Positions 42,822 to 54,291 are shown, counted from the first letter of the stretch. The stretch is 64,000 nucleotides of DNA from Deltaproteobacteria bacterium (GCA_020635195.1 JACKAG010000006.1:4010-68009), one strand, 5' to 3'. Notes: generated by a model not told the origin, from the letters alone. Made by a program: numbers and translations.

Positions 42822-44450
42822 ATGTCAGATAAAAAAATTCCCGATCCGGAAGATATTCAGAGAGAATTTGAGGACTTCGTTCAAAAACGTTTTGGCAAAA
42901 ATATTCAGGTTTTTGCTCAGGAGTTGCCCTCCTCTTTTCTTTCGAAAGAAAAAACAGAACCGGAGGAAAAAAACGATCTTCAGGAAGAAAAGAAACTGGA
43001 TGAGAAAATTTTTTCCTTTAATATGAAACCCAAAGATCTGAAAGAGCAACTGGATCGCTTTATTATCGGACAGGATGAAGCCAGAAAAGCGCTGTCGATT
43101 GCTGTCTGTGATCACTATAATCAGGTGTCTTTGCATCATCGTCATCCGGATCTGGATGATCATGCCTATTATGCGAAACAGAATGTTCTGGTTCTTGGCC
43201 CTACTGGTGTTGGAAAAACCTGCATGATCCGGCATATCGCTGAAATGGTAGGAGTTCCTTTTGTCAAGGCAGATGCAACCCGCTTCTCTGAAACGGGTTA
43301 TATGGGAGCCAATGTTGATGATCTGATCCGGGATCTGGTGACTCAGGCAGATGGAAATATTCAGCTGGCTCAGTATGGCATTGTTTATCTTGATGAAGTC
43401 GACAAACTGGCTCAGGCGCCCGGCCATGTCGGAAGAGATGTAAGCGGCAGGGGAGTACAGCTGGGGCTGCTTAAGCTGATGGAAGATACAGATATCGATC
43501 TCAGGGCAGCCCATGATCCTGCATCTCAGATGCAGATTTTTATGGAGATGCAGCAAAAAGGGAAGGTCGAAAAACAGCTGATCAGTACCCGTCATATTCT
43601 TTTTATTGTAAGTGGAGCTTTTACCGGACTTGAGACGATCGTCAGTAAACGGCTAAACCGATCCTCAATCGGCTTCGATCAGGCAGCAAAAGAAACTATA
43701 GATCGCTATGAGCTACTTGCAGAGGCCATGACCGAGGACTTTGTTCTTTATGGATTTGAGCCGGAGTTTGTTGGTCGGCTTCCGGTCCGGGTCGCCTGTC
43801 ATCCTCTGGATGAGGAAAAACTCTTTGAAATTCTGAAACACTCAGAAGGATCGATTATCAGACAATATAAGCAGGCATTCCATAGCTATGGAATTCATCT
43901 TAGCTTTGAAGATGCCGCACTCAGGGAGATTGCCAGGCAAGCATCCCGGGAAGAAACCGGAGCCCGGTCATTGATGACGATCTGTGAAAAAATCTTCCGT
44001 TGTTTTAAATATGAATTACCATCTTCCTCAATACAGGAACTGGTGGTTTCAGAAGATGTCGTCCGGGACCCTGCCGGGTCTTTGCAGCGCCTGCTCAGAG
44101 ATGCCCCGCAGACAGATCCTGTCGACATTCGTGAGATCCGTCTCTTTGAGGAAAATTTTTTCCGGAAGTACCGGATGAAGATATGCTTTTCACCTGAAGC
44201 TCGCAATCTGATTTGCCAGTCGGCACAGACAAAGCATGTTGGGATTGGACAGTTCTGTCAGAATCTTCTGGAAAATTATGAACATGCTCTGATGCTGATA
44301 AGCCAGAAGACCGGAGTCAATGAGTTTATTCTTAAAGAAGATGTCGTCAGAGATCCGCAACAGGCTCTGGAAGTGATGGTCCGGGAATCCTGCATCCAGA
44401 GCTCTTCCGATCAATCCGAGAAAAGAGAACCGCAAAGCCCTGTTCTCTGA
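42822..44450 (+). CDS. ClpX-like AAA+ unfoldase paralog lacking the N-terminal zinc-binding domain
   Basis: Motifs LDRFIIGQDEARKAL, Walker A GPTGVGKT, pore loop GYMG, Walker B IVYLDEVDK, RDVSGRGVQLGLLKLMEDT, an IGF tripeptide (SSIGFDQ) and sensor-2 GARSL. There is no Cys cluster in the first 80 aa. An extra C-terminal segment of about 130 aa is present. Confidence 0.8.
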   Translation: MSDKKIPDPEDIQREFEDFVQKRFGKNIQVFAQELPSSFLSKEKTEPEEKNDLQEEKKLDEKIFSFNMKPKDLKEQLDRFIIGQDEARKALSIAVCDHYNQVSLHHRHPDLDDHAYYAKQNVLVLGPTGVGKTCMIRHIAEMVGVPFVKADATRFSETGYMGANVDDLIRDLVTQADGNIQLAQYGIVYLDEVDKLAQAPGHVGRDVSGRGVQLGLLKLMEDTDIDLRAAHDPASQMQIFMEMQQKGKVEKQLISTRHILFIVSGAFTGLETIVSKRLNRSSIGFDQAAKETIDRYELLAEAMTEDFVLYGFEPEFVGRLPVRVACHPLDEEKLFEILKHSEGSIIRQYKQAFHSYGIHLSFEDAALREIARQASREETGARSLMTICEKIFRCFKYELPSSSIQELVVSEDVVRDPAGSLQRLLRDAPQTDPVDIREIRLFEENFFRKYRMKICFSPEARNLICQSAQTKHVGIGQFCQNLLENYEHALMLISQKTGVNEFILKEDVVRDPQQALEVMVRESCIQSSSDQSEKREPQSPVL

Positions 44451-44596: not shown

Positions 44597-45100
44597 ATGC
44601 TTATATCTGAGGTTCTGGAATTGGGACATCTGAAGGTTGTGATCAGAGAACAGGAAGGACGTGCCAGATATACCCTGGCAGGCGATGTGGATGAGGCCAT
44701 CTCGCAGGAGAGCTTTCCCGCAACAGATCTCAATGAGGTGATCCTTGATCTTTCCGGGATCATGAGCTTCAATTCCTGCGGTTTGAGAGAGTGGATTCGC
44801 TGGATTCAGATCTTTTCCTCTCATCATAAAGTTTACTTTGAGAACTGCTCTGTACCCACCATTGATCAGATGAATATGATGCCTCAGACTATGGGGAAAG
44901 GGACTGTTCTGTCTTTTTATGCTCCTTATTATTGTGAAACCTGTGGAGAAGTCAATCAGCTGGTTCTTATGGATCGCTACGCTGAAATGCTCCGGCAGAA
45001 AAAAGCTCCGGACTTTTCTTGTGAAACCTGTGGTGATGTTCTCTGTTTTGATGCGCTGGCAGCGAGTTATTTTTTATTTGCAGACAGTCGCGCAGGATGA
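44597..45100 (+). CDS. STAS-like domain protein with a C-terminal CxxC...CxxC zinc ribbon
   Basis: ILDLSGIMSFNSCGLREWIRWI is typical of STAS / anti-sigma-antagonist folds. It is followed by CETCGEV...CETCGDV. The gene lies directly upstream of cheA. Confidence 0.5.
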   Translation: MLISEVLELGHLKVVIREQEGRARYTLAGDVDEAISQESFPATDLNEVILDLSGIMSFNSCGLREWIRWIQIFSSHHKVYFENCSVPTIDQMNMMPQTMGKGTVLSFYAPYYCETCGEVNQLVLMDRYAEMLRQKKAPDFSCETCGDVLCFDALAASYFLFADSRAG

Positions 45101-45150
45101 ATATAGCAAAGAAATATTGACCGGATCAGAAAGACGATAATGGAGATGGG

Positions 45151-47544
45151 ATGATGGGAATGGATGCACTCACACAAAAGGCTTTTGAAGCACTGGTGAA
45201 AGACATTCTTCCCAGACTTGCTTCTCATCTGAGTTCTCTGGAAGCTCTGGCTCCAGAATCACGGGAATCTGATAATGACTGTCGTTTTCTGATCAGGGAA
45301 GCCTCTGAGCTATTAAAGCTCATGGATAAATGGAGTCAGAGTTCTGCTAAAACAGATCTGCCAGAGCACGATATTTCCGAAATTCCGGAAACATCGACTC
45401 AGGAAGAATATCCGGCCGATTCTGTCACAGAAGAGTCCGATCCTTCGGCAGAAATGAGTGATGATGAAGCCCGCAGATTGCTGGCAATGATGGATGGAAC
45501 TGACTCATCTCCGCCAACTCCTGCCAAAAATCACTGTGATTCCAGCTCTGACATGAGTGATGAAGAAGCTATGGCCGCACTGGCTGCGATGGACAGCCCG
45601 GTGCAGGAGTCCTCCTCTGACAGCGGAGACGAAGACGATGATGCAGCTCTGAAAATGCTGGCCCGACTTGAAGAAGAGGCCGAAGGCACCCCCGGCGCAA
45701 CCCAGGACTCACAGGAGCCCTCAGCAACAACAGGAAGCGCGCCTGCTTTTACTGATGAGATAGTAGAAGAAGTTGAAGAATTCGGAGAGAGTGAATTTAG
45801 CTCAGATCCTGATATGATCCAGGATTTTATCACCAATGCTGATGAACTCATGGAAAATCTGGATACACAAGTTCTGGCTCTTGAAAAATCACCGACAAGT
45901 CAGGAAATCATCAACGAAATTTTTCGCTCTGCCCATACCCTGAAAGGGGCTGCTGGTATGTTTGCATTCCGTGCGATTGAACGGATTATGCACCGGATGG
46001 AGAACTATTTTGATCAGATCAGTAAGGGCAAACAAACGGTAAGTGGGGCTGCTGTTGACGTGCTTTTTAGCGCAATGGATATTCTGAGACATCTGATTGA
46101 TGGAGTCAGAAATGGCAAACCCACGGGTCGCCAGACTGCTCAGATTGTTCATCAGCTTAACCAGCTTTGTGCAGGAACATTAATATCATCCTCTGCCAGC
46201 CATGCATCTTCCCCTAAGGAAAAAGAAGAAGAACAGGCGACAGAAAATCCAGCAGATGACACAGCAAAAAAGCAAAAGCAGTCGACAATCCGGGTTGATC
46301 TTCAACGGCTTGATGCTCTTGTGAATCTGGTAGGGGAGCTGGTGATTGACAGAACACGTTTTATGAGTATTGAAGAACAGCTCAGAATAAAAGGACCTCA
46401 TCCGAACCTTGCCGGAAATATGTCAGAAACAGTTCAGCTTTTTGGGCGCCATATGAATGAAGTCCAGGACATTATTATGAAAGTCAGGATGGTCCCTATC
46501 GGAAATGCTTTTAATAAATATACGAGGATTGTCCGTGATCTGTCCAGGAGCCTTGGAAAAGAAATTGACCTGATTATTGACGGAGAGCACACAGAGCTGG
46601 ATAAAACGATTGTGGAAGAAATCGGTGATCCTCTGATCCATCTGATCCGTAACTCAGTCGATCATGGAATAGAACTTCCTGAAGACAGGGTTTCAGCAGG
46701 CAAAAAATCGCGAGGAAAAATTATGCTTGCCGCTCGTCAGGAAGGAAACCAGATTATGATCACGATTGAGGACGACGGAAAAGGTATGGCTAAGGAGAAA
46801 ATTCGTCAGAAGGGCATAGAAAAAGGTCTGATTAAAGAAGATGATAATTTAAGCGATCGTGATATTTTCAGTCTGATTTTTGAGCCTGGATTTTCGACGG
46901 CTGATCAGGTCACCAATATTTCCGGTCGTGGTGTTGGGATGGATGTTGTAAAGCGACAGATTCTGAAATTAAAAGGAAATATTGACATCCATTCTGAAGC
47001 TGGCGTTGGTACAAGCATTTCAATTCAGTTACCACTGACTCTGGCTATTGTACAGAGCTTACTTGTTAAATCAAAAGAAGATGTCTTTGCGATCCCTCTG
47101 AGTACTGTTGTGGAATCGATCCGGATTAAACCGTCGGATCTGCAACGGGTCGGGGACTCTGAGGTCATCAGACGTCGCAACAGAGTGCTTCCTCTGTTTC
47201 ATCTTCATGATGTTCTGGATCTGGATCAGAAAGCAAATCACTTCTGGTATCAGTCCCCTGAACATGAGCACTCACATGGTCGCAGGAAAAAAAACAAAGT
47301 CTATGAAGAGCGTTTATTTGTCGTGGTTGTCGGGACAGCAGAAAGAAGATTTGGCCTGATCGTAGATTCCCTCTTAAATCAACAGGAAATGGTGATTAAG
47401 TCGATGGGAAATCTGATGGCAGATATTCCCTGCGTTGCAGGAGGAGCGATCCTTGGGAACGGAGAAGTGGTGCTGGTTCTGGATATTGTCGAAATGGAAA
47501 GTTATTTTCGTCATAAAGTCCGGGGAATTCAGCAAGTCGCATAA
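45151..47544 (+). CDS. cheA: Chemotaxis histidine kinase CheA (P1-P3-P4-P5, no P2, long acidic N-terminal extension)
   Basis: HPt motif FRSAHTLKGAAGMF (His262). P3 is IRVDLQRLDALVNLVGELVI. The N box is HLIRNSVDHGIE, G1 is EDDGKGM, the F box is FEPGFST and G2 is GRGVGMDVV. A CheW-like P5 forms the C-terminus. Confidence 0.9.
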   Translation: MMGMDALTQKAFEALVKDILPRLASHLSSLEALAPESRESDNDCRFLIREASELLKLMDKWSQSSAKTDLPEHDISEIPETSTQEEYPADSVTEESDPSAEMSDDEARRLLAMMDGTDSSPPTPAKNHCDSSSDMSDEEAMAALAAMDSPVQESSSDSGDEDDDAALKMLARLEEEAEGTPGATQDSQEPSATTGSAPAFTDEIVEEVEEFGESEFSSDPDMIQDFITNADELMENLDTQVLALEKSPTSQEIINEIFRSAHTLKGAAGMFAFRAIERIMHRMENYFDQISKGKQTVSGAAVDVLFSAMDILRHLIDGVRNGKPTGRQTAQIVHQLNQLCAGTLISSSASHASSPKEKEEEQATENPADDTAKKQKQSTIRVDLQRLDALVNLVGELVIDRTRFMSIEEQLRIKGPHPNLAGNMSETVQLFGRHMNEVQDIIMKVRMVPIGNAFNKYTRIVRDLSRSLGKEIDLIIDGEHTELDKTIVEEIGDPLIHLIRNSVDHGIELPEDRVSAGKKSRGKIMLAARQEGNQIMITIEDDGKGMAKEKIRQKGIEKGLIKEDDNLSDRDIFSLIFEPGFSTADQVTNISGRGVGMDVVKRQILKLKGNIDIHSEAGVGTSISIQLPLTLAIVQSLLVKSKEDVFAIPLSTVVESIRIKPSDLQRVGDSEVIRRRNRVLPLFHLHDVLDLDQKANHFWYQSPEHEHSHGRRKKNKVYEERLFVVVVGTAERRFGLIVDSLLNQQEMVIKSMGNLMADIPCVAGGAILGNGEVVLVLDIVEMESYFRHKVRGIQQVA

Positions 47545-47558
47545 CATGAGGGGCAGCT

Positions 47559-48134
47559 ATGCAGTGGGATCATGGTAATTCCAGAAGCGGAGTTCAGGGC
47601 TCTGGTATTTTTGCCATCAGAGGAAATCTGGATGGTGAGACAGAAGAAGAATTTACAGAAAAAGAACAGTTTATTGGCCTGAAGATCGGCGATGAGGAAT
47701 TTTACCTGCCCATTGCTGCGGTTAATGAAATTGTGATGCTTATTCCAATTACTTATGTCCCACAATCCGGAAAAATGATTGAAGGAGTGATCAATCTTCG
47801 CGGTACCATTTTGCCTGCAATTAACCTGAGAAAAATGATGGGTCTTAAAAAAGGAACGGTAACACCCGCCACCCGTATTATCATTGTCCGTCATAATGAT
47901 ATGCTGATTGGTCTGATTGTGGATACAATTACTTACGTACACTCAATCTATCCATCTGAAATTGAAACACAGACACTTCCAGGTAAAGGCATGGGTTCTG
48001 ATCTTGTCACCAGGATTTCTAAAAACGGATCAAATATCACTGGTATTCTTGATATCAGTAAAATTTTCTCTCATGCCTCAGAATCAGCAAAATCAGGTCA
48101 TGACTACGAAAACATGGGGCATCTGGCAGGATAG
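47559..48134 (+). CDS. cheW: CheW coupling protein
   Basis: EFYLPIAAVNEIVMLIPITYVPQSGKMIEGVINLRGTILPAINLRKMMGL is a canonical CheW core. It starts 15 nt after cheA. Confidence 0.85.
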   Translation: MQWDHGNSRSGVQGSGIFAIRGNLDGETEEEFTEKEQFIGLKIGDEEFYLPIAAVNEIVMLIPITYVPQSGKMIEGVINLRGTILPAINLRKMMGLKKGTVTPATRIIIVRHNDMLIGLIVDTITYVHSIYPSEIETQTLPGKGMGSDLVTRISKNGSNITGILDISKIFSHASESAKSGHDYENMGHLAG

Positions 48135-49281: not shown

Positions 49282-50397
49282 ATGGCATCCTGTTCTGAGG
49301 AAATATCAGTAATTCGTGGCAGTATTCATGCATACCGGATTTTTGATATCGGCAGTGAAATGGATATCCTGCATGCTGAACAGCTACTGAAAGATCAGAA
49401 CGCGAGTCAGTATTCTCCCGATCTTCCCGGACGTGGGATGCTGATTGCCGAGCGTCCTCTGGGCCTGATTCTGTCCTCATGGACAGAATCGATTGCGGAT
49501 CAGGAGTACCAGGTCATTCCGTTTGTTAAAATATGGAGTTTTGGAACGATTTCCATTCGTTTTCGCCTGGATCTGGATGGGCACTTTTCTTTGCCCGACC
49601 TTTGTGAAATCAGTCACTATCTTGAAAACAGTGAATCGTTTCATCAAAAGGCTGTAAACCAGGTGACAGAACTGATTACACTCCTGAATCCGGCGATTAA
49701 AAAGCCAGGATTATGGCGTCAGTTCGAAGATTATCTGTTCTTTCATTTTGAAAAAATTACTGAGGAACAAGAAGACCTTAAAAAGGTTTTTTATGGAGAT
49801 GGTATTTCATCTCTGATTCTTGGTGAAAAGTATATGGAGTTTTCCGATCAGATTAATGATTCGGTGGCTTCCACGATCTTTCAATATGAAAAGAATGATT
49901 TACTGTTGATCCACTGGAATGGTTCGATTCTTTATGATGCTGAACATGACGAAAATATTCTTCATGTGATTGAGTTTGCGTTGTGCCAGCTTCTGGAGCT
50001 TCGCTATTATGATGATCTTCTCGATCATCAGCTGGAAAGCTTGTATCACAAAATTGAAAACAAAAGAGGGACTGTTTTCAGAAATCCTTATACAGAACTG
50101 GCCAGATTTGCAGCTCTGGAGTACATTGATATCAGTGACATCGTAGACAAAGTAGGAAACGCCTTTAAAATTATCGGGGATTTTTATTATGCGACGATTT
50201 TTCGTGCCGCAACAGAAAAATTCCAGATTCCGGTCTGGAGAAAAATCGTTGACCACAAGCTCGGAAACCTTGCGGAGGTTTCCAGATTATTTCTCGGAGA
50301 TGTCAATGAAAAGCGCAACCAGATTCTGGAAGGAATTATTATTGTGCTGATTGCAATTGAGGTCATCCCTTTTATTCTCAGCCTCACTCAGCACTGA
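49282..50397 (+). CDS. RMD1/YagE (DUF155)-like protein with a C-terminal membrane anchor
   Basis: The C-terminus ...VNEKRNQILEGIIIVLIAIEVIPFIL matches the DUF155 ending (LEwiIIvLIaiEv). The core contains WSFGTISIRF and LLLIHWNGSILY strands. It starts 12 nt after the parA-like gene. Confidence 0.5.
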   Translation: MASCSEEISVIRGSIHAYRIFDIGSEMDILHAEQLLKDQNASQYSPDLPGRGMLIAERPLGLILSSWTESIADQEYQVIPFVKIWSFGTISIRFRLDLDGHFSLPDLCEISHYLENSESFHQKAVNQVTELITLLNPAIKKPGLWRQFEDYLFFHFEKITEEQEDLKKVFYGDGISSLILGEKYMEFSDQINDSVASTIFQYEKNDLLLIHWNGSILYDAEHDENILHVIEFALCQLLELRYYDDLLDHQLESLYHKIENKRGTVFRNPYTELARFAALEYIDISDIVDKVGNAFKIIGDFYYATIFRAATEKFQIPVWRKIVDHKLGNLAEVSRLFLGDVNEKRNQILEGIIIVLIAIEVIPFILSLTQH

Positions 50398-53538: not shown

Positions 53539-54291
53539 GTGACATACAGTCCGATCAGAATGTTACTGGTAGATGATGCTTCGGTCAGTGCGACACTGGA
53601 CCGGGCGGGCTACCGGAGTATGGGAATGCAGGTCTTTGCGGTTTCTTCTCCTGATTCGGTGATGGCTCTGGCCAGAGAGAAGAAAGCTGAAATGATTGTT
53701 CTGAACTTTGATTTTCTGGGAGAAGAAACCGCACGCTTATGTGAAAGCCTGCGGGCTGATGAAGATTTTCATCTGATTCCATTGGTTGTTACGAGTGTCC
53801 AGGGAGATGCCGGACTCAAAAAAAAGCTCCTCGCAAAAGGGGTGAATCTCTTTGTCGAACAGCCAATCCCGAGGCCGTACTTTGTTGAACAGCTGAAAAA
53901 ACTCTTAACCAGAATGATACGGGGAGAAGACCGGATTCATGCGCAGGAAGGAGACTCTGTCCATGTGACCATTCATGGACAGAAATACCCTGCAATGATA
54001 GGAGATTTATCCAGCTCCGGCCTCTTTCTCTGCCCCCAGGGGGATGACATCCCCTTCAGTGAGGGAGATCATTGTTCGGTATTGATATCTATGGCGGGCA
54101 TGACTCAAGCCTGCCAGGCAGAGTGTGAGGTGGTACGAATTCTGCATCATGACTCCAGATTTCCGGACAGACAGGCCGGAGCAGGACTTATCTTCAGGGC
54201 CTTTGAAAAGGATGGAGAGAAGGTTCTTATGGATTTTCTGGCGGTTCATGGCAGGGCTGAGGAAGATCAACGCATGCTGTATTACCTCTGA
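53539..54291 (+). CDS. Receiver-like domain plus PilZ c-di-GMP-binding domain protein
   Basis: The N-terminus IRMLLVDDASV...MIVLNFDF...PLVVTS has a CheY-like layout. The PilZ motifs are RGEDR (RxxxR) and DLSSSG (DxSxxG). GTG start. Confidence 0.7.
   Translation: MTYSPIRMLLVDDASVSATLDRAGYRSMGMQVFAVSSPDSVMALAREKKAEMIVLNFDFLGEETARLCESLRADEDFHLIPLVVTSVQGDAGLKKKLLAKGVNLFVEQPIPRPYFVEQLKKLLTRMIRGEDRIHAQEGDSVHVTIHGQKYPAMIGDLSSSGLFLCPQGDDIPFSEGDHCSVLISMAGMTQACQAECEVVRILHHDSRFPDRQAGAGLIFRAFEKDGEKVLMDFLAVHGRAEEDQRMLYYL

Follow-up and report, generated by a model that had tools for sequence, protein, structure and literature searches.

How CheA histidine kinases that lack a P2 domain find their partners is poorly understood, and such kinases are common: in a survey of thousands of CheA proteins, more than 50% had no P2, and AlphaFold showed an unstructured linker between P1 and P3 in those proteins (Berry, Andrianova, Zhulin, PMC10542144). 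In F6-class CheA of Vibrio and Pseudomonas, a localisation and inheritance domain (LID) carries a 19-residue repeat, DEITDAEFESLLDQLHGKG, with the core EFExLLD (PMC5706961; 10.1101/2025.10.27.684771). The LID, which the EFExLLD repeats overlap, binds ParP in Vibrio via the CheW-like AIF domain of ParP (Alvarado 2017, PMC5706961; 10.1101/2025.10.27.684771), and the contacts of the repeats on the CheW-like domain of ParP are so far AlphaFold 3 predictions (10.1101/2025.10.27.684771). LID repeats are acidic and are present in two or three copies in the P2-less region of CheA, and all reports of them come from organisms that have both ParC and ParP. To our knowledge, this repeat is the only linear-motif solution to partner finding that has been described. 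Binding of the LID to ParP is also reported by Ringgaard 2014. Here, we describe a P2-less CheA encoded in a 64,000-nucleotide stretch of DNA from a deltaproteobacterium of Oligoflexia type (GCA_020635195.1 JACKAG010000006.1:4010-68009; hereafter, the window), in which an acidic N-terminal extension contains three copies of a short motif that is predicted to be helical. The window lies on contig C27 of a 2.3-Mb assembly that is 59% complete.

Two further docking peptides bear on this CheA. Both the FliM N-terminal motif, with the consensus LSQxE(I/V)DALL, and the peptide at the C-terminus of CheZ dock on the alpha4-beta5-alpha5 face of CheY or CheY~P. For FliM, the EIDAL motif is what CheY binds (PMC6946799).

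An N-terminal module in a P2-less CheA

The first 215 residues of this CheA form a genuine module, translated and specific to its clade, in a kinase without P2. We favour a reading in which this extension serves as a multivalent docking array, its helices folding upon binding next to P1 (probability about 0.7), and in which, by analogy with the LID, the motifs would be read by a CheW-family domain that tethers the kinase, a part of the reading to which we give only about one chance in three (0.35). The gene and its parts are listed below, with support from AlphaFold2 (AF2) models, their predicted local distance difference test (pLDDT) scores, and a position-specific scoring matrix (PSSM).

45151..47544, + strand: cheA, an open reading frame of 797 residues (hairpin, motif array, acidic/aromatic box, P1, linker, P3, P4, P5)
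45166..45348, + strand: N-terminal helical hairpin, residues 6-66 (~60 residues); AF2 helices 6-31 and 42-66, pLDDT ~96
45454..45498, + strand: motif copy 1, canonical, MSDDEARRLLAMMDG; PSSM 51 bits, 9/9 class positions; AF2 helix 104-114, pLDDT ~75
45553..45600, + strand: motif copy 2, canonical, MSDEEAMAALAAMDSP; PSSM 49 bits, 8/9 class positions; AF2 helix 137-148
45628..45678, + strand: motif copy 3, terminal variant, DEDDDAALKMLARLEEE; PSSM 27.6 bits; AF2 helix 163-175
Array peptide, EMSDDEARRLLAMMDG, or CheA residues 68-200: candidate docking segment
45769..45828, + strand: acidic/aromatic box, EVEEFGESEFSSDPDMIQDF, leading into helix A of P1; homologue comparison, AF2 pLDDT 86-94
45811..46173, + strand: P1/Hpt, residues 221-341; Pfam Hpt, AF2 helices 220-341
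45934-45936, + strand: codon of the phospho-accepting His262, in FRSAHTLKG; from the translation
46174..46278, + strand: P1-P3 linker, 35 residues, disordered; AF2 pLDDT <50 over 349-379
46279..47493, + strand: kinase core, P3 (377-445), P4 (493-630), and P5 (636-781); Pfam, Foldseek

As a preliminary description of this locus had claimed, the extension is acidic, and strongly so: residues 1-215 contain 55 aspartates and glutamates versus 14 lysines and arginines, and the 148 residues from 68 to 215 contain 44 acidic and 5 basic side chains, for a net charge of -39. A search for homologues with residues 1-380 of CheA as the query found 344, most of which spanned the whole N-terminus; those that are named belong to Bdellovibrionota, Oligoflexales, and Pseudobacteriovorax. 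The same extension is found in other CheA proteins: over 100 Oligoflexia/Bdellovibrionota homologues keep it at the protein level, with linkers between the motifs that drift in length and composition, and the order of hairpin, array, and P1 was invariant across the clade. Because the hairpin and motifs are conserved at the protein level in these homologues, the upstream start codon of cheA is real. A true start downstream of the repeats was ruled out by the same conservation together with a Shine-Dalgarno sequence, GGAG, at 45142-45145, 5 nt before the ATG. We found no earlier description of the CheA N-terminal extension in the literature, and N-terminal repeats are not mentioned in the CheA survey cited above (PMC10542144); the N-terminal motif arm of CheA thus appears to be previously undescribed.

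Between the hairpin and the box, AF2 modelled residues 68-196 as disordered apart from short helices at 104-114, 137-148, and 163-175 (pLDDT ~60-75), which are the helices of the three motif copies. The motif spans 16 residues, Φ-S-D-D-E-A-x-x-L-L-A-x-M-D-x-P, and has the family form (E)MSDDEA(R/A)(K/R)LLA(E/A)MD(A/G)P. Three copies had been proposed at 45454-45680; the positions stood, but the third copy proved to be a distinct terminal variant, whose family form, (S)ADDEAxAMLxxLGG, was detected in 76 of 120 homologues and followed the last canonical copy in 64 of them. Copy number ranged from 1 to at least 9 per protein across homologues; successive copies start a median of 27 residues apart, and the linkers that join them are rich in proline, alanine, and serine. 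At the variable positions of the motif, identity was 0.44 between copies of one protein versus 0.27 between proteins, and copies within a protein being more alike than copies in different proteins argues that arrays expand and contract locally and repeatedly. The wide range of copy number provides a natural titration of valency.

As judged from conservation and from the AF2 model, the repeats are genuine selected linear motifs, modelled as short helices in a disordered tether. First, the best match outside the array to the PSSM built from homologues, in a six-frame translation of the 2.3-Mb assembly, scored 23 bits. Second, a loose version of the pattern occurred 580 times in the N-termini of 119 homologues versus 5 times in the approximately twofold longer remainder of these proteins. 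Third, the key position was alanine in 97% of 318 instances, although the pattern did not demand alanine at this position, and conservation was 94% for the methionine and 80-93% for the Leu-Leu pair. Fourth, when 1.84e9 representative proteins were searched with a 30-position profile of the motif, 23 cluster representatives matched at E<=1e-3, each of them a CheA of this clade or a fragment of one; neither this search nor the PSSM scan of the genome placed the motif in another protein family or elsewhere in the genome. Every Hpt-bearing member of the clade has at least one copy, except for one protein that is apparently truncated at its N-terminus. With respect to structure, we infer from the motif pattern and the model that S-D-D-E would form the N-cap box of each helix, that D-x-P would stop it, and that the alanine, the Leu-Leu pair, and the methionine would make up its conserved face.

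The hairpin and the acidic/aromatic box are elements of the extension beyond those in the preliminary description. The hairpin, with the family consensus MDALTxxAxExLxKxILPxL...ExxxLLxLLxxW, was conserved clade-wide and persisted in variants that have neither P1 nor the repeats. It had no relative in Pfam or the PDB, where a profile search returned designed helical hairpins only. The possibility that the hairpin is a degenerate Hpt domain was rejected, as hhalign gave no match (probability 0.2%), although a complete Hpt occupies this position in one relative. The box, with the consensus E-h-x-E-(F/W)-x-x-x-(D/E)-F-x-x-D-P-x-M-x-x-D-F, was found in 113 of 120 homologues and always started 55 residues ahead of the phospho-accepting histidine. 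Its residues 205-219 were non-helical yet confidently modelled by AF2, and the box may cap P1 or serve as an additional docking element.

Downstream of the extension, the order of the P3 dimerisation, P4 HATPase_c, and P5 CheW-like domains is that of CheA histidine kinases. Pfam placed Hpt at residues 221-321 (E=2.3e-16), H-kinase_dim at 377-445, HATPase_c at 493-630, and CheW at 636-781, and the best Foldseek matches were the CheA structures 3JA6, 1B3Q, and 6S1K (T. maritima, E. coli; E=1e-37). His262 was confirmed by translation as the Hpt histidine. Pfam detected no P2 or other CheY-binding domain in CheA, nor in the P1-P3 linker alone at E<=10, and a relaxed Pfam scan of residues 1-220 returned no family. 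In the AF2 model of the CheA monomer (92-sequence alignment, mean pLDDT 81), P3 began at residue 384 (377 by Pfam) and residues 349-379 were disordered; hence, a P2 fold is absent and there is no space for one, and the blank Pfam result combined with the disordered linker ruled out a hidden P2. Pfam and AF2 thus agree with the earlier account of a P3 start near residue 377, a short low-complexity stretch after P1, and no room for P2, and P2 was detected neither by profile nor by structure. The absence stands, but it is not unusual: since more than 50% of CheAs lack P2, its absence is ordinary and nothing has to replace it.

Gene neighbourhood and variant architectures

Loci were collected from species-representative genomes with the small protein encoded upstream of cheA as a probe (71 loci) and from exact-protein look-ups (5 more). 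Flanks were usable at 29 loci, 27 with a repeat-bearing CheA and 2 with a repeat-less one (L015 and L016). The conserved core in Oligoflexia consists of the upstream gene (167 residues), the repeat-bearing CheA (1-6 motifs by strict count), and a CheW of 180-195 residues, forming a compact gene set of a STAS/zinc-ribbon protein, CheA, and a specialised CheW. No CheY or other standard receiver was encoded within ~8-10 kb in the 29 loci with usable flanks, and no methyl-accepting chemotaxis protein, CheB, or CheR was found at the five loci annotated with Pfam. In the window, the genes flanking cheA are as follows.

44597..45100, + strand: STAS domain with a C-terminal Cys4 zinc ribbon, 167 residues; AF2 pLDDT 93.6, weak Pfam matches to Zn_ribbon and STAS
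47559..48134, + strand: specialised CheW, 191 residues; Pfam CheW, E=8e-31, 107 bits
48427..49269, + strand: ParA/Soj-type ATPase, 280 residues, an optional member of the module; Pfam, NCBIfam

Among the loci whose upstream flank is present, L001 was the only one in which the STAS/zinc-ribbon gene did not directly precede the gene for the repeat-bearing CheA. The top Foldseek matches of the first ~100 residues of the STAS/zinc-ribbon protein were the anti-sigma antagonists TM1442, SpoIIAA, RsfB, and RsbV, and the Cys4 zinc ribbon at the C-terminus was conserved. In Bacteriovoracia, the family occurs without CheA, ahead of a ~510-residue receiver-containing protein, whose N-terminus is PAS-like by eye, and a CheY-like gene. 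STAS antagonists bind partners with the GHKL fold (SpoIIAB, RsbW), which is also the fold of CheA P4. According to a passage in PMC12654446 that cites Dogra 2012, CheS, a STAS-only protein from the che cluster of Sinorhizobium (S. meliloti)/Agrobacterium, binds CheA and alters the handling of CheY. By analogy with CheS, the STAS/zinc-ribbon protein may be a general kinase-binding regulator. Farther upstream in this genome only, a ClpX-like AAA+ gene (42822-44450, +) precedes the module; relatives have genes for enolase and an M28 peptidase there.

CheW adjoined CheA on its downstream side in 26 of 26 repeat-CheA loci with a downstream flank. At all of these loci, with or without the ParA-like gene, CheW carried a characteristic N-terminal peptide, which in the window is GIFAIRGNLDGE (residues 16-27; region 47559-47666) and has the family form h-F-(A/S)-I-(R/H)-G-(D/N)-L-D-G; this peptide was absent from the other CheWs of this genome. 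The ParA-like gene was a less constant neighbour, adjoining CheW in 8 of the 26 loci (approximately one third), and an orthologue was missing in three of four relatives' genomes, where the best matches were 28-31% identical versus 55-62% for true orthologues. The best PDB match of the ATPase was ParA/Soj (8RAY, E=1e-26), with FlhG/FleN far weaker (E=3e-6). Relatives differ by the insertion or deletion of the ATPase gene between CheW and a protein of ~1700-2000 residues encoded on the opposite strand (faint TPR matches). Directly after the ATPase gene in the window is a gene for a 371-residue protein without a family match (49282-50397, +).

A REC-PilZ protein encoded at 53539-54291 (+) was rejected as the cognate regulator of this CheA: its Pfam score was below the cut-off, and the synteny persists in loci without CheA. 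Compared with the standard receiver consensus, the conserved lysine of its receiver is glutamine in the translations. The gene is syntenic ~6 kb downstream in two genomes (this one and L001:18094-18822), and its product is probably a neighbour by conserved gene order and not a target of the kinase. Elsewhere, this genome has three further CheA loci and, on contig C1, an orphan CheY (122 residues, 46% identical to E. coli CheY). The orphan CheY gene (C1:254611-256378, -) lies between genes for two ~200-residue proteins that resemble each other's paralogues, and these two neighbours might be CheY-directed accessory proteins. FliM was present in four of four relatives' genomes that carry this CheA, which on gene content makes these relatives flagellated; it was not found in this incomplete (59%) assembly.

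Two departures from the common architecture were found. In one clade, CheA-like proteins of 469-518 residues (L013:10566-11975, L015:10566-11975, and L016:1889-3445) have the hairpin joined straight to P3, so that the repeats and P1/Hpt are both gone. The STAS gene, CheW, and the ParA-like gene are retained in this clade, and the N-terminal peptide of CheW is degraded or lost. The repeats and P1 adjoin each other, and one deletion is enough to account for the loss of both. A CheA-like kinase without Hpt suggests a scaffold-only role or P1 supplied in trans. The second departure is a distant relative of 853 residues (P0135), in which a full Hpt domain (His in GVHSLKG) replaces the hairpin, giving the order Hpt, three repeats, Hpt, P3, P4, and P5.

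Candidate readers of the array

Likeness between the motif and known docking peptides was scored on nine class-defined positions. In random 14-residue windows of this genome, which served as background, six or more matches occurred at a frequency of 1.7e-3 and seven or more at 1.6e-4. ITDAEFESLLDQLH, the LID repeat published for CheA of Pseudomonas putida, matched the array at 7/9 class positions (per-window P 1.6e-4).

In the favoured reading, the motif helices are predicted fold-upon-binding sites, which together would act as a 'fishing line' that holds copies of one partner beside P1. This partner would be the specialised CheW encoded directly downstream and possibly also the P5 domain of CheA itself. 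The array would then tether P1 and the kinase to the lattice of CheW and receptors, by analogy with the LID, which keeps CheA in the receptor array, and where the ParA-like ATPase is present, the tether would also be linked to a positioning system. We favour a LID-type role because the specialised CheW is always adjacent, a ParA-like gene is frequent, and the loci have no cheY. The arrangement of CheW and the ParA-like gene is one recalling ParC-ParP-CheW. A CheW reader is also supported by the clade without repeats and P1, which has lost or degraded the CheW peptide as well.

Several observations weigh against a CheW-family reader. The repeats, P1, and the CheW peptide were lost together in one event in evolution, and this co-variation therefore counts as a single observation (n=1). 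The likeness to the LID repeat rests on 14 residues and shares with it the generic S/T-x-x-E cap and Leu-Leu pair, and no F6-class CheA was present among the 23 matches to the motif profile, so that homology to the LID is not demonstrated. LID repeats have been reported only with ParC and ParP, whereas three of the four relatives' genomes have no ParA-like orthologue, and no second, ParP-like CheW-domain gene was found at the loci, where the sole CheW-domain gene is the CheW of 180-195 residues. This CheW is strongly canonical (Pfam, 107 bits) and must also couple receptors. In addition, the location of the array directly N-terminal to P1 fits a role in phosphotransfer at least as well. The charges of the candidate partners, all of which are acidic, do not discriminate between them.

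The strongest competitor, which we regard as possible though doubtful, holds that the motifs are peptides of the FliM-N/CheZ-C type. They would bind the alpha4-beta5-alpha5 face of a CheY-like receiver and concentrate it near P1, doing the job of the missing P2. With no CheY encoded in the operon, a receiver of some other che cluster would have to serve, one example being the orphan CheY on contig C1. A phosphotransfer role of this kind is favoured by the position of the array immediately before P1, by the layout with repeats between two Hpt domains in one relative, and by the absence of both repeats and P1 in L013, L015, and L016. The near-universal presence of at least one motif copy in Hpt-bearing members, the flagellated relatives, the suitability of a high copy number for capturing an abundant diffusible protein, and the precedent of the FliM EIDAL motif (PMC6946799) point the same way. 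Within this lineage, the N-terminus of FliM, LSQSEVDALLSAVS, has a motif part, MSQVLSQSEVDALLSAV, that shares the pattern Φ-S-x-x-E-h-x-x-L-L-x-x-Φ with the array and matched it at 6/9 class positions (per-window P 1.7e-3). The motifs had originally been called FliM-like, and this likeness is modest: the serine, glutamate, and Leu-Leu pair are in register, but the Ile/Val position of FliM is alanine in 97% of instances, and the aspartate of EIDAL is replaced by arginine, lysine, or alanine. Part of the likeness is, moreover, the generic S-x-x-E helix cap and Leu-Leu pair, and E. coli FliM-N and the CheZ C-terminus matched at only 5/9 and 4/9 positions, respectively. Further evidence against a CheY reader comes from the loci, none of which has a nearby receiver gene; from the single deletion that accounts for the joint loss of contiguous repeats and P1; and from the more than 50% of CheAs that work without P2 or any known substitute. 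A CheY reader would also leave the co-varying N-terminal peptide of CheW unexplained.

A combination of these two proposals seems improbable to us. FliM-N, the LID repeats, and the array would be one class of docking peptide, [ILM]-[ST]-x-x-E-h-x-x-L-L-x-x-Φ, that has arisen several times, and the array would be bifunctional, mimicking the lineage's FliM so that a CheA without a CheY of its own could capture flagellar CheY or CheY~P, the captured CheY~P possibly being drained by reverse transfer to P1, and also tethering the kinase to the specialised CheW, with the STAS/zinc-ribbon protein setting the mode.

It is quite unlikely that the motif helices dock within the CheA dimer, in cis or in trans, on the hairpin, P1, or P4 and thereby gate the access of P1 to the kinase domain, acting as an autoinhibitory or pseudo-partner tether, with the STAS protein perhaps relieving the block. 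The pLDDT values of the monomer model (~96 for the hairpin and 60-75 for the motif helices) would fit such packing, and the hairpin, array, and P1 always occur in a fixed order. The STAS gene lies upstream of nearly every member, STAS proteins bind GHKL partners, and CheS binds CheA according to the passage noted above (PMC12654446). A regulator acting in cis, however, needs one copy of the motif, and arrays of at least nine copies argue for avidity or an external partner. Moreover, the hairpin and STAS gene both persist in the motif-less clade and are therefore independent of the motifs.

It is very unlikely that the acidic helices recruit the ParA-like ATPase, in the way that FliM recruits the MinD-like FlhG through its EIDAL motif, or the STAS/zinc-ribbon protein. 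EIDAL is necessary and sufficient for FlhG binding in Shewanella (10.1101/2022.04.21.489128), the ParA-like gene lies two genes downstream in the window, and, wherever an upstream flank is present, the STAS gene adjoins cheA with a single exception. Nevertheless, the ATPase is of the ParA/Soj type and far from FlhG/FleN by its PDB matches; its gene is adjacent in only about a third of the loci and has no orthologue in most of the relatives' genomes; the STAS family also occurs without CheA in Bacteriovoracia; and both genes are retained in the repeat-less clade.

Finally, a role with no specific partner, in which the extension acts as an acidic entropic spacer and its helical segments do no more than adjust how large or how charged it is, would fit its net charge, disorder, and variable length but is scarcely credible given that the alanine (97%), methionine (94%), Leu-Leu pair, S-x-x-E cap, and D-x-P stop are kept in register over hundreds of copies while the linkers drift.

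Comparison with described systems

By the tests run, the array does not appear to be a member of the FliM-EIDAL or LID families, and it would work like them in kind. In canonical CheA, P2 folds as an alpha/beta domain and lies between P1 and P3, whereas this CheA has only linear motifs, placed ahead of P1; should the CheY model hold, the two would do the same job of raising the local concentration of the receiver beside P1. CheS resembles the STAS/zinc-ribbon protein in its STAS fold; the gene for the latter is conserved with the kinase and lies directly upstream of it here. The protein described here differs in its added Cys4 zinc ribbon and in belonging to a family that also precedes non-CheA kinase/receiver pairs (Bacteriovoracia). 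This widespread STAS/zinc-ribbon partner of kinases and the N-terminal hairpin of CheA are two further uncharacterised elements flagged by our analysis.

With the FliM N-terminus and CheZ C-terminus, the array shares an acidic amphipathic helix on a flexible tether, with an S-x-x-E cap and a Leu-Leu pair. Those peptides are single terminal copies, whereas the motifs of the array are internal, number from 1 to at least 9, and lie inside a kinase. Compared with FliM-N, the motif also has an extra conserved tail, A-x-M-D-x-P, and its operon has no cheY.

The LID and the array have in common repeats of a short, acidic, helix-type motif within a disordered CheA segment without P2, the register [IM]-[ST]-D-x-E-h-x-x-L-L-x-x-[LM], and genes for a ParA-like ATPase and a CheW-domain protein beside cheA. 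The LID, however, lies between P1 and P3 of F6-class CheA, whereas the array is N-terminal to P1; the key hydrophobic position is phenylalanine in the LID and alanine here; and the two or three copies of the LID contrast with the nine or more that are reached here. F6 systems lack the N-terminal hairpin and STAS partner, both of which are present here, and have ParC and ParP, whereas here the ParA-like gene is often absent and there is no separate ParP. This clade would thus provide a second, independent example of a linear-motif solution in CheA, with a motif that is sharper than that of the LID.

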